Source of the DNA: an uncultured Gammaproteobacteria bacterium
Lineage (GTDB): Bacteria; Patescibacteriota; Microgenomatia; UBA8517
DNA length: 64,000 nt
Reading direction: 5' to 3'
NCBI GenBank assembly: GCA_964599625.1
Contig: CAZRGC010000001.1
Coordinates: 51,019 to 115,018, forward strand
This document shows positions 6,206 to 57,303 of this stretch, one piece after another. The notes below the pieces were generated by a model. That model saw only the letters and a list, made by a program, of their open reading frames with translations, made no database searches and had not been told where the DNA came from. Position numbers and translations under genes: made by a program. Each line of letters opens with the position of its first letter. Position 1 is the stretch's first letter.

Positions 6206-6222
6206 ACCCAAGGAGACTCGAA

Positions 6223-7149: not shown

Positions 7150-7189
7150 TACCAACCTTTTTCAAGATCAAATTTCAAGGAGATTTGCA

Positions 7190-7948
7190 ATGTCTCAATC
7201 AAAACAACCATCGGAAGCCATTGTTGGTGCAGGGCTTTCCGTAGAAGCAACCAACATTCTTGTCAAGAATGTGAACACGAAAACGATGGCCGGCGCAGGT
7301 GGTACTGATGTCGACGATCTGGTGACAGATGTCGTTACCCTCTCGCTTCTCATTGTGGACGAAAGCTATTCGATGTCTGACGACGAGACTCAAGTCAAGT
7401 CCGAAATCGATGCCAGTATCGAGGCGATCAAGGATAGCTCTCAGCGGGACGAGATCCTTCTGTCCATTTGGGCGTTTAATTCGCGCACCCGCCTGATTCA
7501 CAGCTACCTCAGCCTGGACCTGGTGGAACCGTTCACGGATTATCATCCGCAGAACAACACGGCGCTTTACGACTCGATCATCGACGGTCTGACCGGCCTG
7601 GTCAAGTATGAGGCAGAACTCAAAGCCCAAGGCTGGCGCGTCAAGCTCAACGTAGGCGTGGTCACCGATGGTGACGACAACGAGAGCCGCCATACCGCCG
7701 CGCAAGTCAAGACTGTGGTCGAGGAACTCCGCCGCAAGCGAGAGAACGCTACGTTCGCCCTTATTGCCCTCGGCAATGACGTGGACGAGACCGTACTCGC
7801 CGCGAGCATGGGTTTCCCCGATCCCAAACGATTCGATAAGACCCCTCAGGGCCGCCGCCGCGCGTTCGGTACCTGGAGTTCGAGTGTCATCAAGACCTCC
7901 CAAACCCAGATCGGCACCGCCAGTGGCAGTCTGTTCCAGGCACCCTAA
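7190..7948 (+). CDS. von Willebrand factor A domain protein (TerY-like)
   Basis: MIDAS motif LLIVDESYSMSD (DxSxS) plus downstream T and D residues (VVTDGDDNES). Start moved to the ATG at 7190 because AAGGAG sits 8 nt upstream; the ORF track begins at 7118. Confidence 0.75.
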   Translation: MSQSKQPSEAIVGAGLSVEATNILVKNVNTKTMAGAGGTDVDDLVTDVVTLSLLIVDESYSMSDDETQVKSEIDASIEAIKDSSQRDEILLSIWAFNSRTRLIHSYLSLDLVEPFTDYHPQNNTALYDSIIDGLTGLVKYEAELKAQGWRVKLNVGVVTDGDDNESRHTAAQVKTVVEELRRKRENATFALIALGNDVDETVLAASMGFPDPKRFDKTPQGRRRAFGTWSSSVIKTSQTQIGTASGSLFQAP

Positions 7949-11707: not shown

Positions 11708-13276
11708 TTAGAATCGCCAGTCTATCTCAATCTTGCCGTTACCCGCTCTTATCTCTTTAATGATTGCCCGAAGGAAGTGTTTTTTCTCTTCTAAGTTGGC
11801 ACTGTCCCATAAGATATCGAAGTCTTCCAATGATTTAGTAAATTTCTCCAATTCTTTGCGACGTTCGTTTACCAGTTGAAGCTTAGTTTTATATTCATCG
11901 GTAACCACATGGTATTTATTTTCTTCCTCGTCTAAACGCTTTATATTGGCTGCGTACACCTCAATTGAATCTATACCCGCCTCATAGGCTTCTTTTACCC
12001 GTTCACGGCGTCTATCGATGTCAGCTAGGTGTTTAGCCGCTAGGTTGGCGTCAGCTTCGAGGTTTTCGGTAATAGTGATGTTCTTATCCAATATCAGTCG
12101 TTCTCGGGCCGTAGGATTGTTTACAAGGTTCCTAATTTGGTTCAAAACGAACTCTTCTAGTCTAGTTGCACTCATTATCCGTCGTTGGCATATTCCTGTG
12201 TATTTATAGCCACCACACAAATATTCGTATGTTATGGTGTCGTTCCATTTAGGATTCTTTTTCTTTCGATTGTGATGACGGGTTAAATAGGTTACACCCG
12301 ATCCACAACGGATACATTTAGCTATGCCCGTTAATAGCCCACGGCTCATCCTTGCCCGTCCTTTTTGGGAATTTCCTCGTATCTTTTTCTCTTTTTGGGC
12401 TAATTTGAAGATTTCCTCAGTAATAATTGGGGCATGTTGTCCGTTTTCGACAATACCCTTATGATCCCTTAGTTTTCGTTGCTTGTTTTTGGCATAGTCG
12501 GCATGCCTCCATCCCCAAAGTACCTTTCCCGTATAGGTTTGGTTTTGTAGCATGTATTTGACTGCCTGCGCACGCCAATATGGGCCTCTAGGGGGTTTAA
12601 CCCCTTTTGTAGTTAGTTCAAACGCAATGCTTTGGGTACCTTTCCCTTTGATGTATTCGTCAAATATCCATCTGACGATTATTGCTTTTTCTTCATCAAT
12701 CTCAATTTTTCTCTGTACTTTGTTCTTTTCGTCGATCCAACGGACAATAACATAGCCGTAGGGGACGTTGTTTGGTATTTTTCCTGCCTTAGCCACTGCC
12801 AATTTACCCATTGTCATTCTGCGTCTGATCTTGTTGCGTTCGATTTCGGCCATCGTATCGCTAAAACCCTCTACCATAATGCCTAAATCGTCGTCTGTGG
12901 GATCGTAAAGTTTTGGATCTCGGGGTTCTACGGGAGTAGCTACGGAGTATGTTTGGATGAACATTTTTTTCAAGTCATCCCTAGCCTTGGTAGCATACGA
13001 TTTGTTACGGGCAAAACGATCAAAATCTTTGACGACTACTAGATCGAATTTGTAATCTGACGCGTCCTGCATCATTCTCTGGAAACCTAATCGTTCCTCG
13101 ATTAAATGTCCGCTTTCTACATCTTGATAGGGATCGGCCACTAATTCCCAGCCGTGATCGGCTATAGCCTTTTTACAAACTCGAATCTGATCTTGAATTG
13201 ATTCTTTCCCGTCGGCTTGTTCTTTTGTGCTAACACGGGCGTATATGACGGCCCGAATCTTAAATTTATTTTCCAT
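11708..13276 (-). CDS. large serine recombinase (integrase)
   Basis: N-terminal resolvase catalytic domain AVIYARVSTKEQ, then a recombinase domain and a Cys-rich zinc-ribbon region (CIRCGSG...C...C), then a C-terminal coiled coil. Confidence 0.85.
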   Translation of the reverse strand: MENKFKIRAVIYARVSTKEQADGKESIQDQIRVCKKAIADHGWELVADPYQDVESGHLIEERLGFQRMMQDASDYKFDLVVVKDFDRFARNKSYATKARDDLKKMFIQTYSVATPVEPRDPKLYDPTDDDLGIMVEGFSDTMAEIERNKIRRRMTMGKLAVAKAGKIPNNVPYGYVIVRWIDEKNKVQRKIEIDEEKAIIVRWIFDEYIKGKGTQSIAFELTTKGVKPPRGPYWRAQAVKYMLQNQTYTGKVLWGWRHADYAKNKQRKLRDHKGIVENGQHAPIITEEIFKLAQKEKKIRGNSQKGRARMSRGLLTGIAKCIRCGSGVTYLTRHHNRKKKNPKWNDTITYEYLCGGYKYTGICQRRIMSATRLEEFVLNQIRNLVNNPTARERLILDKNITITENLEADANLAAKHLADIDRRRERVKEAYEAGIDSIEVYAANIKRLDEEENKYHVVTDEYKTKLQLVNERRKELEKFTKSLEDFDILWDSANLEEKKHFLRAIIKEIRAGNGKIEIDWRF

Positions 13277-13568: not shown

Positions 13569-14366
13569 ATGAAAAATGTAATAGACGACGCTAGGACATT
13601 GGTTTCTAAATTGGAGAAATCCATATCACCCAGTAATGAATGGAAAATTGTAAGTGTTGCAAAAACTTCAAAAAAGATAAAGTTGCCTAGATCACTGGCA
13701 AAACTGGATTGGTTTCAGTACTCTCACGAGGATACGTTGGATATATTAGTGAAACACGGTGTAATTAAGGGCGTAACGTATGATTGGTGGTTTTTGGGAT
13801 TTAAGAGTATAGATTCTCTGTGGGGTAGAAATAGGCCTGAGGAATTGGCTGTGGATGATGGGATAGTTCATATTGCTCAAAAAGTGAGACTCATTAGGAA
13901 AGATCAGATAATCGAATACTATTATGTAATTCCCTCTGATGATCGCGGCCCACAACCTCCTGGTTTGGCATCCATATTGGTAAATAGGGAACAACTGAAA
14001 AATTTCAAGAAAACACTAGATAGTTTGAAGGTTATGTTCAATGACAACGATAGTTGTTTGGAATTTTTGGGCGAAAGTCTTCAATTCAAAAAAATGGAGA
14101 AAGAGTGTGTAAAATTGTTGATTAAAAATTTGAATAAACCCGTTTCATATAAAGACTTTTATGAAGTCAGAGATGGAAGTTACACTACAAAGGCAATAGA
14201 GCAGGGAAAAAGTGATGCAGATGAACCGTCTCGGGCCATGTTCAAAAGAATTAGGGCAAAAATCTACAAAAATAAAAAATTGAAGCAAGTCTTGCTTCTA
14301 AGTGAATCAGTTGGTTTCAAAATGAAAGTAAATCGAGACGCCTTAGAAAAATTTCTTCTGATCTGA
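13569..14366 (+). CDS. hypothetical protein (island cargo)
   Basis: 265-aa ORF with no recognisable motif. Confidence 0.4.
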   Translation: MKNVIDDARTLVSKLEKSISPSNEWKIVSVAKTSKKIKLPRSLAKLDWFQYSHEDTLDILVKHGVIKGVTYDWWFLGFKSIDSLWGRNRPEELAVDDGIVHIAQKVRLIRKDQIIEYYYVIPSDDRGPQPPGLASILVNREQLKNFKKTLDSLKVMFNDNDSCLEFLGESLQFKKMEKECVKLLIKNLNKPVSYKDFYEVRDGSYTTKAIEQGKSDADEPSRAMFKRIRAKIYKNKKLKQVLLLSESVGFKMKVNRDALEKFLLI

Positions 14367-14456
14367 TAAAAGGATCCTCTTTTAAGTTTCGTCCCAATCC
14401 GTCCTAGTTGTGTATCTTTTTCCGTCCCCAAATCTGGGGATACCCTAGAGACTGAT

Positions 14457-14654
14457 ATGGAAAATCAGTCTAGTAATTCCACTAGCAAAGATAAGCGTGA
14501 TCGGTTAATTGGCAATGCCGTAGAGGCATACGCCACACTATTCCGTTCCGTGTTGGACAGAACGCAACGGGAGTACATGTCCAGGCAAATAAAAAAGGGT
14601 ATACAAGCAAAAAAATTAAAAGATGAATATGAAAAACACAGAGTACAAGTCTAA
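14457..14654 (+). CDS. small hypothetical protein (phage-like)
   Basis: 65-aa basic ORF that overlaps the next ORF. Confidence 0.25.
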   Translation: MENQSSNSTSKDKRDRLIGNAVEAYATLFRSVLDRTQREYMSRQIKKGIQAKKLKDEYEKHRVQV

Positions 14655-14871
14655 CGATCTATATCAAGCGGTAGCTCTCAAAACAGCAGGAATGCCGTTA
14701 CTTCGGCTGGAAAAGTCCTCGGGACACTTCTACATTTTCGTGTTCGATGATCCAAATAACAAAGCAGAAGAGATTTTGTCGCAATTTTGGGCCAAGACAT
14801 TACAAGTAGATGCAAAAACGTTTGTTGAAAATATAAATGAAGCTAAGGCACGCATTCATCAAGGCCTATGA
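14623..14871 (+). CDS. small hypothetical protein (phage-like)
   Basis: 82-aa ORF overlapping both neighbours in a compact phage-like arrangement. Confidence 0.25.
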   Translation: MNMKNTEYKSNDLYQAVALKTAGMPLLRLEKSSGHFYIFVFDDPNNKAEEILSQFWAKTLQVDAKTFVENINEAKARIHQGL

Positions 14872-15470
14872 AAAAACAAAAACCCTATCAGAACAAAAGA
14901 CAACTAAAACAAGCCTACGAGAAGTTTGGATCGACAAGAAGGGCAGCGAGGTTTTTTGGAGTTACAAACGGAACGATAATCCGTTGGATGAGACATTTTC
15001 ATCTTCCCAGAATTCCCAAACTATATTTATATGACAATCACTCTGGTTGGGGACGCCTAGCTGAAAAATATATTAGCAGACATCCATATTTTCGGAAGTA
15101 TTTCCGAGACGTTGGCGATTTCGATGACAAATCCAAATATGATGCGTTATGGTACTGGGATCGTGTCAACGTTAAATCTACACACAGCAAAGGAAAAAAG
15201 TGTTTCAGGATAAAGAAGAAAAAACACGACGTGGCGTATTACATTTGCTGTGTATACGATGACAAAATTGATCCGTTAATTCCCATCGAAGTTTTTATTA
15301 TTCCCGCTTCGGACGCCCCTAGAACGACTATTACAGTTTCACTAAAAACATCTTGTAAGTATGCAAAGTTTAGGTTGAGTCTACAACGGGGCAAGGCGTT
15401 TTCGATCAAGGACGAGATCAAATATAACGAGCAATTCAAGAATATATATAAGTACCCGAAGTTGAAATAA
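14868..15470 (+). CDS. hypothetical protein with N-terminal helix-turn-helix
   Basis: RRAARFFGVTNGTIIRWMRH is an HTH-like segment; the rest is unknown. Confidence 0.4.
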   Translation: MKKQKPYQNKRQLKQAYEKFGSTRRAARFFGVTNGTIIRWMRHFHLPRIPKLYLYDNHSGWGRLAEKYISRHPYFRKYFRDVGDFDDKSKYDALWYWDRVNVKSTHSKGKKCFRIKKKKHDVAYYICCVYDDKIDPLIPIEVFIIPASDAPRTTITVSLKTSCKYAKFRLSLQRGKAFSIKDEIKYNEQFKNIYKYPKLK

Positions 15471-15821: not shown

Positions 15822-17111
15822 TCAATTACTGTAAAACCAATCCCATTCTGGGTTATCTACTTCTAAAATCTTACTCTTTAGCATTTTATACACTCCATCC
15901 TCTTTGATTGTTTGCCATGTGCCTTCGTAGTAATGGTAATCTACCTCGCCATCATTCCAATTTTTCGTTGAAAACTTAACAAATACTGTGTCGTCGGAGT
16001 TTTCAAATGGTTCGGTGTGAATGACATCAACATCTAGTATATCCGTGAACCTGTTTGTCCATTCCTCATAGTTGGTTTTCTTTAGATAATCGGTGCTTAG
16101 TAGATTGAATCCGTCCTGCATTCTTCTCGCCTTAAGATATGTGTAGAATGCCTCAACGGCTTTTTCTGGTGACTCTGAGGGATCTACTTGTATTTTGGTT
16201 ATATTTTGATCGGTAAAACTAGGAACAGCCGATCTTGCCCAGTCGCCGTCAATAAAAAGCGATAAACCCGCAAGACTAAGCGTGTTAATTCCTACGACTT
16301 GGCCACACTGATCTAATAGTGGCCCGCCACTCATGCCCTGAACCAAGCTAATATCCGTTTGAATGTAAGCCACAGGCATTTGTTTAGATTTTCTAAAATC
16401 CACAAATCTACCCTTAACAACAGTTGCATTGCCAACCAGATCAGTCCCCAAAGGATAGCCCGCAGCAATAAGCGGTTCATCAGCATGTAAGACTACACGT
16501 TCGGGTAAAGGCAAAACCATGTCTGGATATATATTGTCGGTAAATAGCACTGCCATATCCTCATCCTTGTTACCAATAATCTTATTAGGTGTGACAAAAT
16601 TCCCATCTGGGAAAATGATCTTGGGGCTTGGCTCGTCAGCTATAACATGGAAGTTAGTAATAACCTGATCGGGGGCAATAAAAAATCCTGTTCCTTCTGA
16701 ATACCCTCCAACTACTCGAACTACTGATTTTTGGATGGTATCTCTGGCTCCGATTGAACACAAAAATTTTCCATACCAGCCGTACTGCGTTCGCAGATAA
16801 TCGGCGATGACGAATAGGGAGGCTACCATGTAAGCAACAACACCAATGACAAACAATGATTTTAAGAAATTCTTTAGGCTTTTGAAGGGGTAAACGAAAG
16901 TTTCAAAAAAGATTTTGATCAGGGCAATAATAAATTTGATTGTGAATTTTACGATGTAGTAGGTGGTATAGGTTACAAGTTTGATGGGGAATTGATAAAT
17001 GGGGAATAGTAAGCGTTTGAAATAGGCCTTTAGCCGAGTTGTAGTATTTTTATAAGTATCCGAAATTTTTCGAGATAGCCTATCGAATTGTTTTTCAAAT
17101 ATGCTTATCAT
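15822..17111 (-). CDS. membrane-anchored trypsin-like (S1/DegP-type) serine protease
   Basis: N-terminal hydrophobic segments. Catalytic triad context: His in VITNFHVIA, Asp in EDMAVLF, Ser in GMSGGPL. About 130-aa C-terminal extra domain. Confidence 0.7.
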   Translation of the reverse strand: MISIFEKQFDRLSRKISDTYKNTTTRLKAYFKRLLFPIYQFPIKLVTYTTYYIVKFTIKFIIALIKIFFETFVYPFKSLKNFLKSLFVIGVVAYMVASLFVIADYLRTQYGWYGKFLCSIGARDTIQKSVVRVVGGYSEGTGFFIAPDQVITNFHVIADEPSPKIIFPDGNFVTPNKIIGNKDEDMAVLFTDNIYPDMVLPLPERVVLHADEPLIAAGYPLGTDLVGNATVVKGRFVDFRKSKQMPVAYIQTDISLVQGMSGGPLLDQCGQVVGINTLSLAGLSLFIDGDWARSAVPSFTDQNITKIQVDPSESPEKAVEAFYTYLKARRMQDGFNLLSTDYLKKTNYEEWTNRFTDILDVDVIHTEPFENSDDTVFVKFSTKNWNDGEVDYHYYEGTWQTIKEDGVYKMLKSKILEVDNPEWDWFYSN

Positions 17112-19593: not shown

Positions 19594-20322
19594 TTATTTA
19601 ACCTTTTTGATAAAACCTAAATATTTATCTACATCCAAAGCAGGAACAGAGCCAAGTTGTCGAAGTTGTTCAATTAGTTTGAGTAAAAAGAACGCTAGTA
19701 TTGTGGCTCCTTTTTGTTCAAATATTTCTTTCTCGTTTACAATCTTTATTCCGTAGCTTAAGCAAACGACAAAAGATAATGCCGAACCTAATTTAACGTT
19801 CTCGTATGAGGGCTTACTTCCGTGTTCTTTGGTTAATATCCCTCCAAATATATTAAATGGTTCCTTTTTGTTTTTTCCGAGAATATGAGCGAAGCTGGCA
19901 GACGTTTTTTTCAATTCTTGAACACTTTTAAGTTTTTTGATTGCATATTCAAGGTTCGACTTGTTTAATTGTTGTTTGACTTCAAAAACGGCATAAACTC
20001 CCTCCGATGGTATATAAACAACATTTTCTCCCCGAAAAATAAATGGGGTGAAATGCCTATCATAAATAATGATGTCAATTTGTTCACTTATATTTCCTTT
20101 ATGATCTACCACAAAACCATTGTCCACGCTGTACCTTTCTGGTAAATAATTTCGTAGGAGTCCTATCCAATTCAGTTCCGTTTCGTTGCCCTTTGCCGAT
20201 GGATGATATATTTCATCAATCTTGCTCGACAATTTAAGTCTCATTTCTTCATCGAGAGCATTAAATAGTTTTTGCATGTTGATTTTTTTAGACATAGTTT
20301 TTACCAAACAATTTGATTCCAA
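19594..20322 (-). CDS. PD-(D/E)xK restriction-endonuclease-fold protein, NucC-like candidate effector
   Basis: EQIDIIIYD ... AVFEVKQ gives a D ... E-x-K arrangement. Size about 233-242 aa. The real start is probably the in-frame ATG at 20295 (MSKKINMQ), which removes the 22-nt overlap with the upstream NTase gene. The NucC resemblance is from memory of that family, not a search. Confidence 0.4.
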   Translation of the reverse strand: MESNCLVKTMSKKINMQKLFNALDEEMRLKLSSKIDEIYHPSAKGNETELNWIGLLRNYLPERYSVDNGFVVDHKGNISEQIDIIIYDRHFTPFIFRGENVVYIPSEGVYAVFEVKQQLNKSNLEYAIKKLKSVQELKKTSASFAHILGKNKKEPFNIFGGILTKEHGSKPSYENVKLGSALSFVVCLSYGIKIVNEKEIFEQKGATILAFFLLKLIEQLRQLGSVPALDVDKYLGFIKKVK

Positions 20323-21074
20323 TTTGAGTTTTTTATCGCTTCTCTTGCTTTATTTTTTACAGCACTTTTTTCTGTTTGTGTTAATAGATCAGAAAGGATA
20401 TTTCCCGAGTTGGCAGGATCGACTAAATAGGAATCTAAAGGATTATCGTTGTATTTAGCCAGTTCCGTTAAAACATGCCACGCATTGTTTCCTAGTTTGT
20501 CAATTCCAGTAGGGTAAAATTTCAGGATGTTAGTAACTATTAAGTATTCAAGATAGATTGATGGAAATTCAAGTTTGTTAAGTTCTCGCCACACCTTAAG
20601 GATTTTTATTTCATTCGTCCTACCCGAATTAGAAATGTCGTCTATATGTTTTTGAATATTAGTCTGTTTCCTCGTGTCTTGCTTAGAAACATATAGCCAA
20701 TGATCGTTAGTGTATCCAGGTTGTTTCCGTGCAGGTGTAACGTCTACCATTAAGCCGTTAAGGTTTAATCTTATGGAAACATTTTGTTTTCTAACACCAC
20801 TATAAATACTACTGATTTTTGAATATAGTGATTCATAAATCCCTTTTAATCCACCAGTATTTTCATTGCAATTGCTAGTTAATGAAACGAGATAATCTAC
20901 ATCTGACGCAATTGATATAGCTGTACCTTTAGCTCGTGATCCTGAGTCCAAAATATCTAAATAGCAAGTATTTGCCCATGTCTTTAGAATTGATTTCAGA
21001 GTGACAATTGAACTCGAATAGGGTGATAAGTTTCGTGCCTGGTATTTTAATAAAATTTGTTCAAGATATGTCAT
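20301..21074 (-). CDS. CD-NTase/SMODS-like nucleotidyltransferase
   Basis: SGSRAKGTAISIASDVDYLV matches GS...GT...SDhDh. Downstream LMVDVTPAR matches the third-Asp DVhPA motif of the OAS/cGAS/CD-NTase families. Confidence 0.5.
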   Translation of the reverse strand: MTYLEQILLKYQARNLSPYSSSIVTLKSILKTWANTCYLDILDSGSRAKGTAISIASDVDYLVSLTSNCNENTGGLKGIYESLYSKISSIYSGVRKQNVSIRLNLNGLMVDVTPARKQPGYTNDHWLYVSKQDTRKQTNIQKHIDDISNSGRTNEIKILKVWRELNKLEFPSIYLEYLIVTNILKFYPTGIDKLGNNAWHVLTELAKYNDNPLDSYLVDPANSGNILSDLLTQTEKSAVKNKAREAIKNSNWNQIVW

Positions 21075-21075
21075 A

Positions 21076-24000
21076 TTATTTTTCTTCTACAATCGCAATT
21101 TCCTCTGGAGTCAGATCGTAAAGTTCATAAATTTTTTGATCAATATATGTTTCTAATTTACGTATTTCTGTATTTTCAAGATTTATGTTCTTAGATAATT
21201 TCAATATTTCATCCACAAGTTCTATGATAATATTCTGTTTAGCTGGCGGCTTCGGAATGATAAGTGAACCCCTTACCGAGGAAGGATATGTGTGTGAAGT
21301 AGATCCCTGTAAACTTTCTGTAGCAAATCTTTTTCTGTAATAAAATTGCTGCAATTTTGACATCAGAAAAGCTAGCGCATATTTAAGATCTAATTTTTCT
21401 TCTAATAGCTTGTAACCTGAAAAATTAGTTTTTAACTCAGATCCATTAAGCGAAGCGTAGGGGACTACTAATACATTCCCATCATCTGTAAACATTTTTG
21501 AGTTATCATATGCAGCAGCAATTCTATGCCCTTTATCAGATACTTTTCGAATCGCTATTTTTTCATTTTCAAACAACTCTGGACTTCTCGATCCATACAT
21601 ATCTTCTTTTCGATAGTCTAGCCATAAACCTCGATAAGACACATGCCATCTATGGACATCCTTTCCCTCAAAAAACCTTTTTGCATTGCCAACAGGAACG
21701 TTGTTTACGACATCACTTTTACTAAATTTACCCTTTACTTTACTTGAGGGTTGAACACCATAGTTCACATAAAAATAGTTGCCAAATCTTGCAGATTTAT
21801 TTTCAAGTTTTTTGAGTAGATCTTCTTCAGTATTATTAATTGATAATACAAACTGGTGTGTTGGTTGTTGTAGCCATAATTTATTATTTACTGTATTTAA
21901 CAGAACTATTTCACCATTTGTTTCTTTGTTGCCAAAAATATTTATTGAATAGTTTTTTAGTACTCTCTTGGTGGCTACAAATACAGTTGTTCTTCTAGAA
22001 ACATTTTCAAAAACATTAATATCTGTAAACTCTAAAATATTGTCTAATGCCATGTTGTTTAATAAAAACTCTCTTACAGCTTTAGCGTATTTTTCTTTTA
22101 ATATTGGGTTAGGGACGATGAATGATATTGCCCCATTGAAGCCAAGTATTTTATGTCCAAGCGCAACAAATGCGACATATAAGTCCCAGTGTCCAGTTAA
22201 AAATGGATATTCCTTTAATCCAGCTTTAATAATTTTTCTCATTTCTGGATCGTCTTTTTCCATTTGCCACGCGCTCACATACGGTGGATTTGCTATAACC
22301 ACATCAAATCCACCTTTGTTTTCAAATACCTCGCTGTAATTTAATTTCCAAAGGAAAAAGGGACGGATGTTGGCTTTTTTATATTTTTCGACTTGCGTCA
22401 TCAATGATTCTTTTCCTTGTTCCCGAAGTGTGGCCTCGATAAGTTCCCAAGTTAGGGATTCTATTCTTTTTTTGATCTGATCTTTTTCTTTTTTATGTGA
22501 TGTATTGAAAAATTCTTTTTGTAACCGTTTCAAATCTTTAGCCTTTTCTTTAGCTTCACTTTCCTGATCGAATAGTCCCGTGTTCTCAATTGTCGGTTTT
22601 GGTTTGTCGGTTAATTTTTTTAACGCCTTATTATTCTTTTGTAACTCGGCCTCGATTTGTTGTTTTTTGATTCCTGTAAACTCTCCCTTTTGGTACAGTT
22701 GGACAAACTCCCGTGACAACTCACTTATTTTTGCCTTCAAACTTTCGATTTGGGCCGTATTGTCAAACACTGATTTCGTGAACAAATCCTCGTCAAATAG
22801 TTTTATTCCTTCAAACTCTTCCAATAGGCTATTGCCTTGCATGATTTTGTAATCTAGGTTTGGTAGTGGCTTGATTTTTTTAATATCTTGTTCGTCAACG
22901 ATGAGCGATAGCCATAAACGGAGTTTGGCTATTTCAGTAGCCCCAGGATCGATGTCTACCCCGTATAGGCTATGTTGGATCGCATGGTGTTTGAACGCAT
23001 ATATTGATCTGTCGCCATCTACAAAGTAGCTAGAAATGGTGTTTCGTACCCGTATAATCTCTGTCATCATCCCTACCAAAAATGCCCCCGAACCGACGGC
23101 GGGATCGCATACACGGATACTTGCCAATGCGTCATCTATTTGTTTGGCGTTATTTCTAATACTTTCTGGTAATTTATAGGAATAGGTATCGGTTTCCTCG
23201 CCGATCTCGGTAACCCTTGTGTCATGTTCTACTGCTGCCTCGCCAATTTGAACCAATGTCTCAATATCTTCCTTTTCAGCCTTTCCCTCTAGTTCCGTTG
23301 CCAAATAGTTCACCAAACTTTCTTGGCACATGTAGTGGACAATCTCACGGGGTGTATAGTACGTGCCTTTTGATTTTCTATCCCTAACCTCTAGTAGGTT
23401 CTCAAAAACCTTACCTAACATCTCGGGATCGACGGCTACCTCTCGCTCTAACGGCTCATCTTCTTTGACTGTAAAATTGTATCTGTCAAAAATATCTAAA
23501 ATCCCGTCTCCAGTATCACCTTCTTTTGTGGTGTTTTTATTTGAAAATAATTTATTAGGCAAATTTATTTGAGTGTCAGTCCATGAATAACCACTAATAG
23601 GATCAAATAATCCTCCGTTGAGGAAAGGTATTTTACATTTGAACAAAGGGTTAAAATGATCGACATCCGATCTATCCCTAGCTAGAGCGTCGTAAAAAAG
23701 TGGTTCAAGAACGTCGTTGAAAAAATTTTCGTAAGCAAGAACTTTTCCATCAAACAAGTCTCGCAAAAATGTTTTCGATCCAGTACCCCAATCTTTACCC
23801 ATTTCTACTCCGAACCAGCCCTTCTTCTGTAAAAAGTATAAGAAAACAATTTGTCCAAGCAATTTTTTAGTAAAATCTATAGTCTCAATATTTTTATCTT
23901 TGAAATCGTTTTCAATCTGAGGATCGGCCTTGACGATTTTATCCAATGCCTCTTTTGTTTCTAGGAATAACTGTTTGTATTTCTCGAAAAACTCTTTGGT

Positions 24001-24588
24001 AACAACCTCGACGCTAAACACTTTTTCCAAATCGGTTAGGGTAGGGGGAGCATCTTCTTTTATAAGTGTCGGTATTAATTGTTTTTGGGCCGTATGAGTG
24101 TTTTCGTTTTCGCCAACCAAGAAGGAAAATCGTTTGGCAGGGGTTAATTCGGTGATTGTTTTAAGTCGCCCTGCATCAGATTTGCCCAATCGGTATTCCA
24201 TTTTGACTAGCGATAACCGCCAGTCGGTAAGATTTGGTGGCACAAAAGCAACTATTGCCGCATCTTTTGCGTCTCTATTTTTAAGATAATCCGCTACAAA
24301 ATTTCTTTGCGTAGTTCTAGCTCTTTCGAGAGTTTCATTTTTTTCAAGGTAGACAGCAAGTATATCTATTTTGTTGTTATCAGAATCAGTGAAAGTTCCA
24401 AAGCGTTCATATGTTTTTATTGTAGGGTTAGTTTTTTTGAATTTATCTTTAACATATCCATGAGCATGGAATGCTTTTGTTTCGTCGAATTTCCTAAAAA
24501 GATTTTTTGTGAAGATCAAGAAGCGATCCCGATCGTAAGGGTTTTCAAATGTACTTTTGACTAGGTTGATTGCTGATTGTTTGTTCAT
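21076..24588 (-). CDS. large gamma-class N6-adenine DNA methyltransferase (PglX/Eco57I/DrmMI-like)
   Basis: Motif I VCDPAVGSGAFLVGMM. LYGVDIDPGATEIAKLRLWLSL. Motif IV VIANPPYVSAW. About 450-aa N-terminal and about 350-aa C-terminal (TRD-like) extensions. Confidence 0.85.
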   Translation of the reverse strand: MNKQSAINLVKSTFENPYDRDRFLIFTKNLFRKFDETKAFHAHGYVKDKFKKTNPTIKTYERFGTFTDSDNNKIDILAVYLEKNETLERARTTQRNFVADYLKNRDAKDAAIVAFVPPNLTDWRLSLVKMEYRLGKSDAGRLKTITELTPAKRFSFLVGENENTHTAQKQLIPTLIKEDAPPTLTDLEKVFSVEVVTKEFFEKYKQLFLETKEALDKIVKADPQIENDFKDKNIETIDFTKKLLGQIVFLYFLQKKGWFGVEMGKDWGTGSKTFLRDLFDGKVLAYENFFNDVLEPLFYDALARDRSDVDHFNPLFKCKIPFLNGGLFDPISGYSWTDTQINLPNKLFSNKNTTKEGDTGDGILDIFDRYNFTVKEDEPLEREVAVDPEMLGKVFENLLEVRDRKSKGTYYTPREIVHYMCQESLVNYLATELEGKAEKEDIETLVQIGEAAVEHDTRVTEIGEETDTYSYKLPESIRNNAKQIDDALASIRVCDPAVGSGAFLVGMMTEIIRVRNTISSYFVDGDRSIYAFKHHAIQHSLYGVDIDPGATEIAKLRLWLSLIVDEQDIKKIKPLPNLDYKIMQGNSLLEEFEGIKLFDEDLFTKSVFDNTAQIESLKAKISELSREFVQLYQKGEFTGIKKQQIEAELQKNNKALKKLTDKPKPTIENTGLFDQESEAKEKAKDLKRLQKEFFNTSHKKEKDQIKKRIESLTWELIEATLREQGKESLMTQVEKYKKANIRPFFLWKLNYSEVFENKGGFDVVIANPPYVSAWQMEKDDPEMRKIIKAGLKEYPFLTGHWDLYVAFVALGHKILGFNGAISFIVPNPILKEKYAKAVREFLLNNMALDNILEFTDINVFENVSRRTTVFVATKRVLKNYSINIFGNKETNGEIVLLNTVNNKLWLQQPTHQFVLSINNTEEDLLKKLENKSARFGNYFYVNYGVQPSSKVKGKFSKSDVVNNVPVGNAKRFFEGKDVHRWHVSYRGLWLDYRKEDMYGSRSPELFENEKIAIRKVSDKGHRIAAAYDNSKMFTDDGNVLVVPYASLNGSELKTNFSGYKLLEEKLDLKYALAFLMSKLQQFYYRKRFATESLQGSTSHTYPSSVRGSLIIPKPPAKQNIIIELVDEILKLSKNINLENTEIRKLETYIDQKIYELYDLTPEEIAIVEEK

Positions 24589-27795: not shown

Positions 27796-27993
27796 TTACA
27801 CCTTAGGGTGTCTAGATATATATGCCTCTATGTCCGCCTTTCTATATCGACGATCTCCAACACCTCTACGTGTACCAATTCTTACCGCTTTTAGGATTCC
27901 TTGTCTATCCCAACGCCTAAGTGTTTGCGGTTTAACATTCAGGATTTTTGCTGCCTGATTTAATGTTAGTAGTTCCTCTAGTTCTGAATTCAT
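27796..27993 (-). CDS. excisionase/AlpA-family HTH DNA-binding protein (paralog of 13285-13512)
   Basis: LTLNQAAKILNVKPQTLRRWDRQGILKAVRIGTRR aligns residue by residue with the other HTH protein. It is the first gene of the 12-kb minus-strand operon. Confidence 0.6.
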   Translation of the reverse strand: MNSELEELLTLNQAAKILNVKPQTLRRWDRQGILKAVRIGTRRGVGDRRYRKADIEAYISRHPKV

Positions 27994-28413: not shown

Positions 28414-30102
28414 TTATTTGCGAGGAACTATCAAAGGTAATGCAACAACTTTTTGATGTGTTGCAGTCTCTTCAAACGATATTCCCCTATACGATCTATC
28501 ACTTTCTTTTCTTACAACCGAGCTTCTATTTTGCTCGCCCTCGTAAGTTGTGGATGTTCGGAAATGTAAGTTTCTTTCTGTCATAAGTGTTGACAGTGTG
28601 TTTTCCCCTGATTTATCTTCTTCTTCAAAGATGGCAATATAGTCTGCAGCTGACCCAAGCATGATTCTGAGACCTGATACGTCCAGATCGTTTGCCCATT
28701 CGTTTATAAGCTGCATCTGGTCATTTGTATTCATGTCTTTAGTATTCATTATGTTAAACGCTATTCTCTGGGGAATCGCCACATCACCCCTTATTCCTTT
28801 TTTATGCCGGGAGAAGTTTATCTCGCCAGTAATTTCAACTCCTTGGGCCTCCATCTCACTCAATGAATTCCCATCTAAGCTATATATTGTAAATCCCATT
28901 CTTTCCAACTCTTCTCTTTGTTCAGTGCTAAATCTTGGAGTTTTGTCTTTTTTTTCTCTGCTCTCGGCAAGGCCTTGCCTTTGTGAAAAGGATGGTCTTG
29001 GCGGCTTGTATACTACTTGCTCAATTGCTTCATTAAGCTTGTTGCGGTCGCTTACACTTTCGAGTTTGTTGGCATAATAATAGCGCAATGCCTGCTGCAT
29101 GGTTTCGGTTATATCGCCGTCATAAAACCTGGCTATGTAATCCCTGACTCTGGTTCTTTCCATTTGATCATCAAAGCTGAATCTCTGGGGCTGGTCAGCC
29201 CCGACTTTTCTTTTTTCTGCTTGCAATTTGGCGTTGCTATGAAACTCCTTATATAGTGCCAAGATTTCCTTTATTCCCGGTATTTCGGCAATTTCTTCTC
29301 TTGTGAGCGCTTTATCTCTTGATTCATATCTTTCAATATTCTTAGCTGCTCCCGGTTTTTCCATAGGTGCAAGGCCAAAGGCTGCATCAACAGCATATGC
29401 AAACGTATCTTTGGGAAGTCCAGCCGGGGCTTTCATGTAAACCCATCTTCTTAATTGAGCTGGGTCAAGGGGTTCCTTGCCAAAAAATCCCTGCCCAGGA
29501 GTGTTGCCAAGAGCAATCAGTTTTGTAATTCCTCTGTCTGTTCTTATTATTTCTGTACCTTCTTTTTCTTTAATCACAACTCGACCGTTGGACTGAAGGG
29601 CGTCATGGACCTCGTGAAGTCTTACAAGTATATTTGCTTGAGCGGCGTTAAACTCATCAAGAATAATAATTTTAACTTTTCCCGGCTCTGGCCTCAATCC
29701 GCTTGTTATTTTTCCATCTACAAATATATGTTCAGGGTCGTTATTTGTCTTTCTGTTTGGGTTTGGTACCCAACGGCCCATCAACTCCTCTGTGTCGGAC
29801 TGGCCGTTTAGGTTGTTGTAGTGAACTTCCCAATTAAGTTCCGCTGCCATTTTTTTAATAGTTGTAGTTTTTCCTATACTAGTGCCCCCCTCGATATACA
29901 TAGGGTCTCCTAAAAGCAAAGAGACAGCTACTTCTCTTTGAAACTGGAGAAAAAATTCATCAGCATAATATTCTTTTGGGGGATCGGGGACAAATACTTC
30001 TGATGCCACTTTTGCTCTGGGGAGTCTTACTCCCATGTAGTCCACATGATTTTCGGCGACAAATACGCCTACATCAGTCCTTCGTTCAGTGTAGCTGTCC
30101 AT
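28414..30102 (-). CDS. MoxR/AAA_5-type AAA+ ATPase with about 250-aa C-terminal extension
   Basis: Walker A GGTSIGKTTT. Walker B KIIILDEFNAAQANILVRLHEV. Last gene of the minus-strand operon. Confidence 0.65.
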   Translation of the reverse strand: MDSYTERRTDVGVFVAENHVDYMGVRLPRAKVASEVFVPDPPKEYYADEFFLQFQREVAVSLLLGDPMYIEGGTSIGKTTTIKKMAAELNWEVHYNNLNGQSDTEELMGRWVPNPNRKTNNDPEHIFVDGKITSGLRPEPGKVKIIILDEFNAAQANILVRLHEVHDALQSNGRVVIKEKEGTEIIRTDRGITKLIALGNTPGQGFFGKEPLDPAQLRRWVYMKAPAGLPKDTFAYAVDAAFGLAPMEKPGAAKNIERYESRDKALTREEIAEIPGIKEILALYKEFHSNAKLQAEKRKVGADQPQRFSFDDQMERTRVRDYIARFYDGDITETMQQALRYYYANKLESVSDRNKLNEAIEQVVYKPPRPSFSQRQGLAESREKKDKTPRFSTEQREELERMGFTIYSLDGNSLSEMEAQGVEITGEINFSRHKKGIRGDVAIPQRIAFNIMNTKDMNTNDQMQLINEWANDLDVSGLRIMLGSAADYIAIFEEEDKSGENTLSTLMTERNLHFRTSTTYEGEQNRSSVVRKESDRSYRGISFEETATHQKVVALPLIVPRK

Positions 30103-30104
30103 GG

Positions 30105-30518
30105 TTATTTTCTAAAAGTAAGACCAACCTTGTCCATGATTAGAAATCCGTCGTTTTCTGATTGTTCTAAAGCGCTCTTTGTAAATATCAGAAGTACGCC
30201 AAATTTTCCTCGGTTAGGTTTTATTACTTCAGGGCGCATCTCGTCTTCGTTGAATGTCTCAATTTGTCCTGTGGGGAATTGAACTAAGATATCATAAACT
30301 TTCTTGGACAATTTTTCGTTTACAACGAAAAAGGTACTCTTTTCCGCTGCAATATTTTCAAAGAAACTGGTATCGGTTTGGGATTCAGCAAAACCATAAC
30401 CTGTCAGAGCACCGCCGATTTGCTCTATTTCATCGGTTCCATCTACAACTGCCAGACTCACTTCATTCTGGCCACTTGTACAGCTCAAGAATTGTTCAAA
30501 ATTTTTTATCTCTTTCAT
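30105..30518 (-). CDS. hypothetical protein sandwiched between the vWA and MoxR genes
   Basis: 137-aa ORF, 2 nt before the MoxR gene and 13 nt after the vWA gene. Confidence 0.4.
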   Translation of the reverse strand: MKEIKNFEQFLSCTSGQNEVSLAVVDGTDEIEQIGGALTGYGFAESQTDTSFFENIAAEKSTFFVVNEKLSKKVYDILVQFPTGQIETFNEDEMRPEVIKPNRGKFGVLLIFTKSALEQSENDGFLIMDKVGLTFRK

Positions 30519-30531
30519 AATACTTATTACA

Positions 30532-32640
30532 TCATACGTAACTCCCGACTATTTTGCGAATTGCATTTGCCAACTCGTCTGGAATCTGTTGGACGTTTGA
30601 AGCTATAAAATAATTTTCAAAATATTCTTTCATAAATCCGGTTCCCGGACCTATGCCGCCACCTATGACTTTTTGATTCCTGCCGGCTTTGGCTTTTTCT
30701 ATTTCTGTCTTTAAATCAAAAGCACGCCTTGGACTGTCGCTTGGCAGATCTGGTCTGCCGTCGCTCAGAACTATCATTACTTTTTCTTTTTGGACTTGCC
30801 TTGCCAGCCTATCAGAACTTTGGTTAACTGCCCAGCCTGTGGCGGTGCCCCATTTCCTGTTACGTTGTGAACGGATTGGTATTTCCAGCATATCCTCCAT
30901 TTTTACACGGATATCATCTGACATCTTTTGGCCGAATTCCTGAAAAACAAACATGTCTGTATTGTATGCAACAACCTCCAAATTTATTGAAAGCCTGTTG
31001 AGAACTTCGGTCAATACAACAACCCCTTTAAATGTTTCCAGAATTTTGTCATCCTCAAGCATTGAAGTTGTTACATCTACAAGCAAAGTAAATGCGTAAT
31101 CTTTTTCCAGGGGTAGCTTTCTTCTTTGCCATGCCTTACTTTCCATAACAGAAACGCCGCGGACTTTCTCTTGGATTCTCTTGGGAATGTCTACCCGCCT
31201 TCCGGTTTTGTAGCCGGTTTGCAGATGACTTTCTCGTCTTTTGGAGAACAGTTCTCTTAGGTCGTTTTCTAATTTGTCTATTATGGGCATAAGGTCCGTA
31301 CGGATCCTTTCGTACTTTGTTTCGTCTGTGCCGAATATTTCCAGAATTTTTTGTTTGAATCTTTTGGTTTCTTTATCTATCTCTTCCTGAGATTTTTTGC
31401 CTGTATTTTCATCGTTTTGTTTTGCGTTCCCCTCGGTTCCATTGCCGCCTTTGGCTTGTGACTCCGAATCGTCTTTTGGTGCATTTCGCATCTCGTCTGG
31501 ATTTTCGTCCATCATTCCTTTGATTTCTCTGTTTATATCTGACTCCAAAATCTTCATTTTTTCTCCTGCCCTTTGCCTCAATTCTTCCTGTTTGTGTGCA
31601 GGAAGTGATTTCAGATGTTCTCTTAATTTCTGCTTCAATTCTTCGGAAAGCGATTCAAGATCTATGGGTGTTGTGGTATTTTCTTCTTCACTTGTCTCCT
31701 GTCTTTCGTTTTCAGACATTGCTTTCTCCATTGCCTCGACGAGTTGTTGAAGCTGTTCTTCTGTTAACTTTTCTGCAACATCTTGGGGAATCGGTTGCTC
31801 AGATCCTTGCTGTGACTTCGAATCTTCCATCATGTCATTTAACATTTCGGATACACCTGCATCTTCTAGATCTTTTTTGATTAGTTCTTCAAATTCCGGC
31901 CAGACCTGACTATCTATCGTCTCTCTTGCACCCCGTGCATATTTTTTAATGACATCCCCACTTTGGTCGGCTTCTTTTTTGGTGGGATATTTCCACCAGG
32001 TGTCATGTGCGCCTTTTTCAATTTTTGTCATAGCACGGGAAACATCCTCACTCAAAGTTTCGGGTGGTTGTCCAGGAGTTTCTCTTATCTCACTGTACCA
32101 CTTGCGTGTCAGCTCATTACCTGCTTGTATAAAACGAGGGATGAATCCAAGTTGTTCGTGGGCTGTTGCTGTTGTTTTTGATTCAACAATTTTTCCTGCC
32201 CTTTCTGCTTCTTCAAGATGTTCGCTGATTTTGGGATAGCCCTCTGCTACAAAATTAGTTGATCTTGCACCTTCCAAGACATTGGTAAGATACTGATAGC
32301 CTGGTTTCTCCCATTGGTCTTTTGGTATATCTCCTAGTCTGGAAATCCTAAGTCTGCCGCTTTGAGTGGCAACTTTGTAGCGTAATGAATCGAGGCTTTC
32401 GTTAACAAGGTCGTTGGGGTCTGCAATTATTTTTGTTCCTTGGACGTCACCTTCCCATCCGGATCCTGGGTCTCCGATTTCCACAGGAACACTAAAATTC
32501 TTGCCTACAAAGTGAGCCAAGGAGGAGAGCATGTGTCTTCTTTCACCAATAGTCGCACGTTCTTGCGAGGTAAAGTTTTCAAGAGGGTCTTTGCGTAAGT
32601 TTTCGGATTCTTGTTCGGGTCTTTCGGCTTTTTCAGGCAT
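30532..32640 (-). CDS. vWA-domain protein with long acidic coiled-coil linker
   Basis: C-terminal vWA: TLLVDVTTSMLED (DxSxS), then VMIVLSDGRPD. Central region rich in E and K (EELKQKLREHLK...). Confidence 0.7.
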   Translation of the reverse strand: MPEKAERPEQESENLRKDPLENFTSQERATIGERRHMLSSLAHFVGKNFSVPVEIGDPGSGWEGDVQGTKIIADPNDLVNESLDSLRYKVATQSGRLRISRLGDIPKDQWEKPGYQYLTNVLEGARSTNFVAEGYPKISEHLEEAERAGKIVESKTTATAHEQLGFIPRFIQAGNELTRKWYSEIRETPGQPPETLSEDVSRAMTKIEKGAHDTWWKYPTKKEADQSGDVIKKYARGARETIDSQVWPEFEELIKKDLEDAGVSEMLNDMMEDSKSQQGSEQPIPQDVAEKLTEEQLQQLVEAMEKAMSENERQETSEEENTTTPIDLESLSEELKQKLREHLKSLPAHKQEELRQRAGEKMKILESDINREIKGMMDENPDEMRNAPKDDSESQAKGGNGTEGNAKQNDENTGKKSQEEIDKETKRFKQKILEIFGTDETKYERIRTDLMPIIDKLENDLRELFSKRRESHLQTGYKTGRRVDIPKRIQEKVRGVSVMESKAWQRRKLPLEKDYAFTLLVDVTTSMLEDDKILETFKGVVVLTEVLNRLSINLEVVAYNTDMFVFQEFGQKMSDDIRVKMEDMLEIPIRSQRNRKWGTATGWAVNQSSDRLARQVQKEKVMIVLSDGRPDLPSDSPRRAFDLKTEIEKAKAGRNQKVIGGGIGPGTGFMKEYFENYFIASNVQQIPDELANAIRKIVGSYV

Positions 32641-32682
32641 TCACATTAGTTTACACCGTTAACCAATTAAACTGTGTGAGAA

Positions 32683-32934
32683 TTATGGTAGCTCTTTCGC
32701 ATTAAAGTAACCTGAGTTGAAGTTAAATTTAAGGTTTTGCAAAAATTTTATTCCGTCAGTTGGAAACAATTTGGTGCCACTTTTAGCGGAATAATCTAAA
32801 ATGCCGTTTTCTTTTATATATTTTACGAACTGGGCATCGCCTGCTGCGCTTACTTGTCCGTCAAGCAAAACAAAACTGGCGAATTCTGTTTGCTCGCCAT
32901 TGTTTTCAAGTTTGTAAATAATTACCTCGTTCAT
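32683..32934 (-). CDS. small hypothetical protein
   Basis: 83-aa ORF, 6 nt downstream of the PI-kinase-like gene. Confidence 0.3.
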   Translation of the reverse strand: MNEVIIYKLENNGEQTEFASFVLLDGQVSAAGDAQFVKYIKENGILDYSAKSGTKLFPTDGIKFLQNLKFNFNSGYFNAKELP

Positions 32935-32940
32935 ACTGGC

Positions 32941-33711
32941 TTAATAGGGGTGATACCTAAAACTTTCCAGGTCAGACTCTCTAATCTTACCGCTTCTTAG
33001 TTTTTGGTTAACAGTTGATACTCTGGCAAACATAGCATCAATTGCTTGCTGGGGGATGAGTGAAGACATTACATTTCTTAGTTTGTTTTGCCTTTGGGTA
33101 TTTGACATAAAACTTGCATATCGTTCTGAAACCTCGGGAGGTACAAGTTTTCCGATAACGTGTTCTTCCAAGTTGCTTGTAATGTTATATTGCCGCCAAT
33201 TATCAAAAGAAAGTCCGTTGTCTATAGCTATTATTTTCTTTTCTTTGACAAAATAGTTTGCTGTTTTCCTATCTTTGTTCCAAATTGAGTAGTCAAAAAG
33301 TGCTAACTCAAAAAGTTGCCTTCTCATCATGGGATCTGCTATGTCTGCATCCCAAATCGAAGTTTTAGGATCTTGAACGAAATCTTGAATACTGCCTTCG
33401 CGTCCGCCGACTTTTTTGATTGTAGTTATGGGCACCAAGTCTGGGTGTAATGCCTGCGAGACTTCAAAAGCAGCGACCTCGCGGAGATAAAGTTTGTATT
33501 GGCTTTCCTCTATTTCCAAAGGATCTTCGCCGTCCCCGGGTTTAAAGACTCCGTTTCCGTCACCCCTGAGATATATAAGCATTACAGTGTTGCTTCCTCC
33601 GGAAAGTCGTCTTGTTTTTTCGTGATCAACTTCTAGGTCCCTTAACTGTATATACCTTTCTGAAGTTATTTCCGGTTGGAACGGGGTGTCTCTTCCTTGT
33701 AATACATCCAT
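32941..33711 (-). CDS. PI3/PI4-kinase-family (type II PI4K-like) atypical kinase
   Basis: SGGSNTV glycine loop. GVFKPGDGEDP corresponds to the FKPxDEEP lysine motif. DRKTAN catalytic loop is of the DRHxxN type. IAIDNGLSF is DFG-like. Confidence 0.5.
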   Translation of the reverse strand: MDVLQGRDTPFQPEITSERYIQLRDLEVDHEKTRRLSGGSNTVMLIYLRGDGNGVFKPGDGEDPLEIEESQYKLYLREVAAFEVSQALHPDLVPITTIKKVGGREGSIQDFVQDPKTSIWDADIADPMMRRQLFELALFDYSIWNKDRKTANYFVKEKKIIAIDNGLSFDNWRQYNITSNLEEHVIGKLVPPEVSERYASFMSNTQRQNKLRNVMSSLIPQQAIDAMFARVSTVNQKLRSGKIRESDLESFRYHPY

Positions 33712-56345: not shown

Positions 56346-56369
56346 GCATTACTCTCAAGGAGAAAATCA

Positions 56370-57290: not shown

Positions 57291-57303
57291 GGAGAAGAGA
57301 ACA

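Follow-up and report, generated by a model that had tools for sequence, protein, structure and literature searches.

Two adjacent genes on the minus strand of the 64-kb window analysed here (64,000 nt of contig CAZRGC010000001.1, assembly GCA_964599625.1; positions are those of the window) raise the question of whether they form a self-contained system of anti-phage signalling based on cyclic oligonucleotides (CBASS) or a working part of the restriction-modification (R-M)-like operon in which they lie. They encode a 257-residue nucleotidyltransferase and, directly downstream, a 233-residue nuclease, which a preliminary description of this DNA had proposed to be a minimal CBASS pair. Both its observation and its interpretation are correct. 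The pair consists of a compact cGAS/DncV-like nucleotidyltransferase (CD-NTase) and a NucC endonuclease, and we read it, with a probability of roughly 0.85, as an autonomous type I CBASS: the cyclase would make a cyclic trinucleotide, and NucC, once activated by it, would destroy DNA.

The cyclase and its NucC partner

Both open reading frames (ORFs) are present on the minus strand where they had been placed before. The cyclase carries SGSRAKGTAISIASDVDYL, with G45-S46, D58 and D60, and its LMVDVTPA motif holds D111, which completes the Pol-beta-type signature GS...[D/E]x[D/E]...[D/E]. The three acidic residues pointed out in the preliminary description stand, while its wording GS-x-GT has to be corrected to GS-RAK-GT. 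G45, S46, D58, D60 and D111 are all invariant in 22 close homologues; in the larger set of 136 family members, D111 never varies and conservation at the other four positions is 90% or more. Residues 2-257 align with positions 5-253 of the 253 positions of the PADLOC model Cyclase PDLC00803 (1.6e-82), and 13 further PADLOC CBASS cyclase models, 14 in all, match more weakly. The Pfam family SMODS is matched just above its cut-off (27.3 against 26.5 bits) and is the sole Pfam family at E<=0.1; nothing of the AbiEii/MNT type, the competing assignment considered earlier, appeared there. Among solved structures the best sequence match is CdnC of Escherichia coli MS115-1 (1.9e-5), and the entries 9sa4 and 9sa5, labelled only 'CD-NTase', are also among the best relatives. 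These entries may, pending confirmation of the link, be the Bacillus cereus CdnD for which production of cyclic triadenylate (cA3, cAAA) was measured in a 2026 study (PMC13424991).

An AlphaFold run on the 22 close homologues gave a pLDDT of 71.8 and was replaced by a run on the 136-sequence alignment, whose model reached a pLDDT of 97.7 and a pTM of 0.92. When this model was compared with the Protein Data Bank (PDB) by Foldseek, the first 25 matches were all CD-NTases (CdnC, CdnD, CdnE, CdnB and CdnG; TM 0.55-0.76), led by CdnC (E 1.2e-12, TM 0.72) and Pseudomonas aeruginosa CdnD (TM 0.73-0.76) and followed by Enterobacter cloacae CdnD, CdnE, CdnB and CdnG. The predicted fold is cGAS/DncV-like and bilobed, with solved CD-NTases as its nearest relatives. 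The Pfam match above cut-off, the full-length PADLOC match and the order of the fold search bear out the CD-NTase identity that had been suggested from motifs.

The nuclease ORF reaches back to a TTG at 20322 (242 aa) and contains an ATG at 20295 (233 aa). On identical metagenome contigs the ATG is the start taken by gene callers, and the alignment with the PADLOC NucC model starts at residue 11 of the 242-residue form. Counted from the ATG, the Asp of QIDIIIYD is D74 and FEVKQ supplies E105 and K107, the same numbers as computed earlier; the NucC numbering given there is right to within one residue (E. coli NucC, 241 aa, with D73, E104 and K106). The protein matches the PADLOC models 'Effector: Endonuclease (NucC)' (6e-75) and NucC (4.7e-48) as well as Pfam DUF6602 (1.1e-33). 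All five of its PDB matches are NucC proteins, the best being 6p7o from E. coli MS115-1 (1.4e-39, spanning residues 6-236 of 241), with others from Vibrio, Serratia and Pseudomonas. As sequence matches, those of the cyclase (1.6e-82) and of the nuclease (6e-75, 1.1e-33 and 1.4e-39) are beyond chance.

The window NucC is 37% identical to E. coli NucC over 220 aligned columns, and its ID-x30-EVK site (I73-D74...E105-V106-K107) has the same spacing. In an alignment of 15 NucC sequences D74 and E105 are invariant and K107 is kept apart from one Arg. Compared with the functional residues defined in the original NucC study (bioRxiv 10.1101/694703), the catalytic D73, E104 and K106 are kept as D74, E105 and K107, the phosphate-contacting R53 as R54, the main-chain contact V227 as V217 and the gate-loop latch H136 as H137. 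Conservative replacements are found at Y81 and T226, where F82 keeps the stacking ring and S216 the hydroxyl of the ligand contact, respectively; Y141, also a gate-loop latch, is absent, the loop being one residue shorter. Judged by sequence, the residues of the cAAA pocket are compatible with cAAA binding, which falls short of proof. The DUF6602 match, the clear homology to NucC and the intact PD-(D/E)xK-type catalytic residues agree with the NucC-like nuclease proposed in the preliminary description. A search of the phage collection with the window NucC gave just two weak partial matches.

CBASS type and expected signal

To assign the CBASS type, ORFs of at least 120 aa between 8.9 and 36.5 kb of the window were scanned with Pfam; PADLOC was run in addition on those of the operon and of the genes upstream of it. 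The large ORFs of this region are SecA, a serine recombinase, two small unknowns, a helix-turn-helix (HTH) protein, the seven operon genes, an AAA_5 ATPase, a 137-aa unknown, a VWA protein, a kinase-like protein and two further unknowns. None of the scanned ORFs matches Cap2/Cap3, HORMA/TRIP13 or the QueC/TGT/OGG-like proteins of type IV; the earlier statement that Cap2/Cap3 and HORMA/TRIP13 genes are missing holds in this region, as does the type I call, and types II and III were rejected on this ground. A QueA gene at 37.5 kb was considered as a type IV ancillary gene and set aside as a tRNA-modification enzyme encoded on the other strand. A cyclase with one adjacent effector and no ancillary match among the scanned ORFs is therefore classed as type I CBASS.

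CdnC and CdnD are cA3/cAAG synthases that partner NucC in type III CBASS. The window cyclase is nearest to these HORMA-dependent enzymes, yet it comes without a HORMA protein. The closest solved counterpart of the pair is CdnC with NucC of E. coli MS115-1 (type III CBASS; 6p80, 6p7o/6p7p), with which it shares the effector family, the ID-x30-E(A/V)K site and the equivalents of Arg53 and His136, and whose CdnC is the best solved match of the window cyclase in both sequence and fold. The window system differs in lacking HORMA and TRIP13 genes, in the length of the cyclase (257 against 321 aa, the two being 19% identical in the structural alignment), in the shorter gate loop without Tyr141 and in its host, a member of the candidate phyla radiation (CPR). 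From the likeness to CdnC and NucC, the expected signal would be cAAA and the expected outcome the destruction of DNA by a NucC hexamer.

Upon infection, the compact CdnC/CdnD-related cyclase would most likely make a 3'3'3'-cAAA-type signal, which would occupy the three-fold pocket of a NucC trimer. Two such trimers would then assemble into a hexamer that cuts double-stranded DNA without sequence specificity, and the infected cell would die ahead of phage release. The nucleotide made, the oligomerisation of NucC and the abortive outcome are inferred; for the signal being cAAA specifically the odds are somewhat favourable.

The architecture of a type I cyclase-NucC pair is itself already known. 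The type I CBASS operon XpCdnC03-NucC was reported to restrict phages in E. coli (Richmond-Buccola et al., bioRxiv 10.1101/2023.05.21.541620). By its description, it resembles the window pair in having two genes, a clade C cyclase and NucC, and no ancillary genes, and differs from it in not being described as embedded in an R-M-type operon. The NucC proteins of type III CRISPR systems in Vibrio metoecus and Serratia (6uxf, 7zgv) are homologous cA3-activated nucleases as well (5.1e-37 and 2.7e-35); they receive their signal from Cas10, whereas in the window a CD-NTase gene lies directly upstream and no CRISPR array is present.

An embedded cassette and its relatives

The cyclase and NucC genes come fourth and fifth among the seven of a minus-strand operon, which runs from an HTH gene through a PLD-SNF2 helicase, a type IIG-like methylase, the cyclase, NucC and a GmrSD-like gene to a trypsin-like protease (Table 1). 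Neighbouring genes are separated by at most 22 nt or overlap by 4 nt. The methylase stop and the cyclase ATG are 1 nt apart, the cyclase stop and the NucC ATG, on the same strand, 5 nt, and the NucC stop and the next ATG 2 nt, in line with the embedding noted before; the HTH gene ends 22 nt ahead of the helicase, the helicase overlaps the methylase start by 4 nt and the protease overlaps the GmrSD-like stop by 4 nt. Judging from this spacing, the pair is probably co-transcribed with the other operon genes.

Two known systems were considered for the host operon. Hma was rejected, as HmaA matches only helicase residues 591-766 (1.4e-24), no HmaB is found among the 25 best methylase matches and there is no ATPase gene; DISARM was rejected, as DrmD-like (8.8e-42) and DrmMI-like (2e-31) matches occur but no DrmB (DUF1998) or separate DrmC gene. 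The host operon is therefore named only an R-M-like helicase-methylase system. The position of the pair agrees with a pattern in which one defence system is nested inside another, reported for Hma, BREX, DISARM and type I R-M operons (Payne et al., bioRxiv 10.1101/2024.01.29.577857). There, unrelated cassettes lie in the same orientation among the genes of a helicase/methylase system, as here, and embedded genes share the orientation of the host operon in 96.7% of cases. A further likeness is that the GmrSD-like neighbour matches PADLOC HEC-05 and that cargo of related operons (PDC-S06, PDC-S31) matches PADLOC phage-defence-candidate (PDC) models. It differs from that work in its host operon, which is not demonstrated to be Hma, the HmaA match being confined to the helicase C-terminal domain and no HmaC ATPase being present; CBASS is absent from the main text of bioRxiv 10.1101/2024.01.29.577857.

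Cassette-like behaviour is seen from both sides. On a Paenibacillus plasmid, no R-M genes are annotated within 5 kb of the pair. Elsewhere it stands beside LexA-like S24 repressors (L005, L007, L011 and L056, with weaker LexA-like matches in L066 and L078; L numbers denote compared loci), and in L005 and L007 the R-M genes lie beyond these repressors. In L014 the pair forms the 3' end of a type I R-M operon, following HsdR-HsdM-NUMOD3-HsdS after a 14-nt gap, and in L058 it lies between a TnsA-like and a GmrSD-like gene. The helicase family, in turn, occurs very widely (at least 7,900 matches; the best 120 at 67-97% identity), and four relatives (L092-L095) keep helicase and methylase and carry other genes directly after the methylase. 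In L093 the slot holds a PDC-S06 ABC-type ATPase, followed by the Cas4-like gene also seen in L009, a related operon from another assembly, and a 429-aa protease; L092 holds two unknowns and then a GmrSD-like gene, L094 three unknowns and L095 PDC-S31. Across the compared loci, the pair has no constant third partner gene. Since the pair occurs without the helicase-methylase core and the core with other cargo, the pair behaves as an autonomous embedded cassette.

Several side observations concern these loci. The unknown slot proteins (222-763 aa) are candidate defence genes by 'guilt by embedding', and a 156-aa NUMOD3-motif protein separates HsdM and HsdS in L014. The protease is kept as the last gene whatever the cargo, both in L009 (68% identity) and, as a 429-aa Trypsin_2 protein, in L093; its N-terminal third is hydrophobic as judged by eye. 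The LexA-like repressors (~200 aa, LexA_DNA_bind plus Peptidase_S24) adjoin many cyclase-NucC pairs and some membrane-effector pairs, usually in divergent orientation. By analogy with the regulator modules (CapH+CapP) of other CBASS operons, they suggest transcriptional control that responds to DNA damage. The GmrSD-like protein has its DUF262 domain at the N-terminus and shows in its centre (~552-681) a weak HEPN_Swt1 (0.0011, below cut-off) or PDC-M34B-like match, and a C-terminal extension of ~150 residues has no match, DUF1524 not being among the Pfam matches.

The cyclase belongs to a large family. A scan of the genome collection with the single cyclase returned one locus, and a scan of metagenomes with the alignment 80 loci. 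In a 90%-clustered database 828 matches were found, the best 120 of which are 63-100% identical and 255-275 aa long; clustering at 50% gave 738 representatives, and the full-length matches among the 150 listed mostly have 250-275 aa. Named members come from Roizmanbacteria, other Patescibacteria, Deltaproteobacteria and Elusimicrobia, and further members lie on plasmids of Paenibacillus, rhizobia and others. We classified 78 non-redundant cyclases, a sample biased by its selection for similarity to the window cyclase. Of these, 58 have a 176-aa membrane protein upstream and 13 have NucC directly downstream, with neither assigned in the remaining 7. The 176-aa protein, for which Pfam and the PDB hold no relative, is membrane-anchored at its N-terminus; it matches the PADLOC CBASS '1TM' effector (2.7e-60) as well as membrane-protein models of type III CRISPR accessories. 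Neighbour joining places 11 of the 13 cyclases linked to NucC in a single clade inside the membrane-effector group, and the other 2 in a second small group. Pairing with NucC thus has the look of a derived effector swap, and it weakly suggests that membrane effector and NucC read one shared signal.

Table 1. Features of the 64-kb window and of compared loci (positions of the window unless a locus is named)
Feature	Position	Strand	Matches and remarks
HTH_17/MerR-type DNA-binding protein, 65 aa, first operon gene	27796-27993	-	Pfam HTH_17 4.4e-14; PADLOC mad1 4.3e-12
PLD (HKD) nuclease-SNF2-type helicase fusion, 1062 aa	24585-27773	-	Pfam PLDc_2, ResIII, SNF2-rel_dom, Helicase_C; PADLOC 'HKD+Snf2' 1.4e-46, DrmD 8.8e-42
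Type IIG-like N6-adenine DNA methyltransferase, 1170 aa, NPPY motif, TaqI_C-type specificity domain	21076-24588	-	Pfam Eco57I 2e-31, also N6_Mtase, MmeI_Mtase, TaqI_C; PADLOC REase_MTase_IIG 2.1e-243; PDB relatives include TaqI, BpuSI
Compact CD-NTase (CBASS oligonucleotide cyclase), 257 aa	20301-21074	-	PADLOC, Pfam, AlphaFold and Foldseek
NucC endonuclease effector, 233 aa from ATG 20295 (ORF reaches TTG 20322)	19594-20295	-	PADLOC, Pfam DUF6602, PDB
GmrSD-like (DUF262) type IV-restriction-like protein, 827 aa	17108-19591	-	Pfam GmrSD_N 6.6e-29; PADLOC PDC-M55C 2.1e-45, HEC-05 2.3e-41; PDB 7p9k (DUF262 domain-containing protein) 1.6e-10
Trypsin-like serine protease, 429 aa, last operon gene	15822-17111	-	Pfam Trypsin_2 7e-21
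Upstream cluster: AAA_5 (dynein/MoxR-type) ATPase, 137-aa unknown, 702-aa VWA protein, 256-aa kinase-like protein	28414-33711	-	kinase-like protein: weak PI3_PI4_kinase/HipA_2 match
Large serine recombinase, directly after secA	11708-13276	-	
Small unknown ORFs and HTH_50 protein	13569-15470	+	
First high-GC patch, three ORFs	4292-7948	+	no Pfam match
Second high-GC patch, three ORFs	54381-57990	+	no Pfam match
Type I R-M operon with the pair at its 3' end	L014 1968-8778		
LexA-like repressor	L005 9339-9941		
LexA-like repressor	L007 9126-9725		
LexA-like repressor	L011 730-1329		
LexA-like repressor	L056 168-788		
LexA-like repressor	L079 3815-4474		
176-aa membrane effector	among L004, L010, L015-L090, e.g. 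L087 4226-4753		

Beyond the operon, the window SecA shares 80-82% identity with proteins of Microgenomates and Woesebacteria in a homology search, which identifies the host as a CPR (Microgenomates-like) bacterium. The cluster upstream of the operon gave no significant PADLOC match and may be another defence-type or regulatory module. The G+C content is 0.32-0.39 across ~17-28 kb, against 0.40-0.44; together with the serine recombinase, this lower value suggests that the defence operon is part of an integrated element. The L009 operon, too, is flanked by a serine recombinase, but one that is only 22% identical to that of the window. Two patches of high G+C content (0.51-0.56 against ~0.40) hold three ORFs of similar size each; they were considered as paralogous gene sets, and the compared pairs are not paralogous. 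Neither a tRNA gene nor an Rfam family at gathering score occurs anywhere in the window.

Alternative readings and meaning

Some of the evidence weighs against an autonomous, cA3-signalling pair. The NCBIfam equivalogs CBASS_cyclase_a and CBASS_cyclase_b reach 52.9 and 32.4 bits, respectively, far under their 200-bit cut-off, and the cA3 assignment has the NucC partner and the structural neighbours CdnC and CdnD as its only basis. The closest solved cyclases require a HORMA partner, and none is present here. Tyr141 is lost through a one-residue deletion between residues 137 and 142 in the window NucC and in 12 of 12 related metagenomic NucC proteins, and kept in the Paenibacillus homologue. 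As mutation of this residue ends cAAA-activated cleavage by E. coli NucC (bioRxiv 10.1101/694703), activation of the window NucC may differ in detail. Scans for promoter and terminator consensus sequences remained at the level of shuffled sequence, which leaves spacing as the basis for co-transcription. Finally, L009 has a matching seven-gene order at 61-70% identity, covering the HTH protein (61%), helicase, N-terminal part of the methylase, cyclase, NucC and protease (68%); a Cas4-like PD-DExK protein takes the place of the GmrSD-like gene and the specificity half of the methylase is divergent. This conserved order makes some functional coupling with the flanking genes conceivable.

Such coupling is the core of the most substantial rival, in which all seven genes would make up a single composite system with the pair as a functional part, acting as a 'restrict first, then suicide' circuit with the cyclase triggered, for example, by DNA ends or translocation events from the PLD-SNF2 helicase, the methylase or the GmrSD-like protein. 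The dense packing of the seven genes and the recurrence of their order in L009 would fit such a circuit, as would the occurrence of the pair beside or inside R-M-type operons in the independent loci L014, L058 and L060 and the fact that the nearest solved cyclase, CdnC, needs a partner and DNA (review PMC10419184), with no HORMA protein present here. However, the pair is also found without a helicase-methylase neighbour, the core carries quite different cargo in its slot, no third gene accompanies the pair constantly, and same-orientation embedding of unrelated defence systems has been described in general (bioRxiv 10.1101/2024.01.29.577857), so that we regard the composite system as unlikely. 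Equally doubtful is the narrower proposal that the HORMA-less cyclase is licensed by the surrounding restriction machinery, for instance by DNA ends or translocation intermediates from the helicase or the GmrSD-like nuclease. If true, the operon would wire two layers together, so that restriction, whether failed or under way, sets off cA3/NucC suicide. A lesser variant, in which the Tyr141-less NucC subfamily answers a cyclic trinucleotide other than cAAA, shares this low probability.

The remaining rivals call the function or the identity of the pair into question. A degenerate type III CBASS or inactive remnant, which lost HORMA/TRIP13 and its signalling, could explain why the solved proteins nearest to the cyclase, CdnC and CdnD, belong to HORMA/TRIP13 operons and why the cyclase is ~60 residues shorter than CdnC. 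This is very unlikely, since 255-265 aa is the normal length in a large cyclase family that is highly conserved (72% mean column identity, n=22) with an intact catalytic triad, HORMA/TRIP13 occur in none of the homologous loci with Pfam-annotated genes, and an identical cyclase is present in three further sequencing runs. NucC might instead act for a type III CRISPR-Cas system at another place in the genome, like its counterparts in Vibrio metoecus and Serratia, with the cyclase being incidental; NucC homologues are known as type III CRISPR accessories, and both the best PADLOC model of the helicase and the alternative membrane effector carry type III-accessory labels. We consider this even less probable, as the window has no CRISPR-like repeat array, the scanned proteins gave no Cas match, and the cyclase gene 5 nt upstream of NucC is kept in this pairing in 13 distinct loci. 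Motifs by themselves cannot separate a CD-NTase from an AbiEii/MNT-like toxin-antitoxin nucleotidyltransferase beside an unrelated PD-(D/E)xK nuclease, because the Pol-beta GS...DxD core is common to both families. That last assignment is rejected, with hardly any probability left to it, by Pfam (SMODS only), by the PADLOC matches, which comprise 14 CBASS cyclase models and no toxin-antitoxin model, by the CD-NTases ranking first in the fold search and by the partner being unambiguously NucC.

The autonomous type I CBASS is thus a clean minimal example, well supported but ordinary, and not a new kind of system. The pair documents a large family of unusually small, HORMA-less CdnC/CdnD-related cyclases (~255-265 aa), in which one type of cyclase is combined with swapped effectors, an upstream membrane protein or a downstream NucC. 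With it, CBASS joins the cassettes found inside helicase-methylase and type I R-M operons, the present case coming from a CPR bacterium with a small genome. The small cyclases provide a convenient minimal system to ask how a type I cyclase senses infection.

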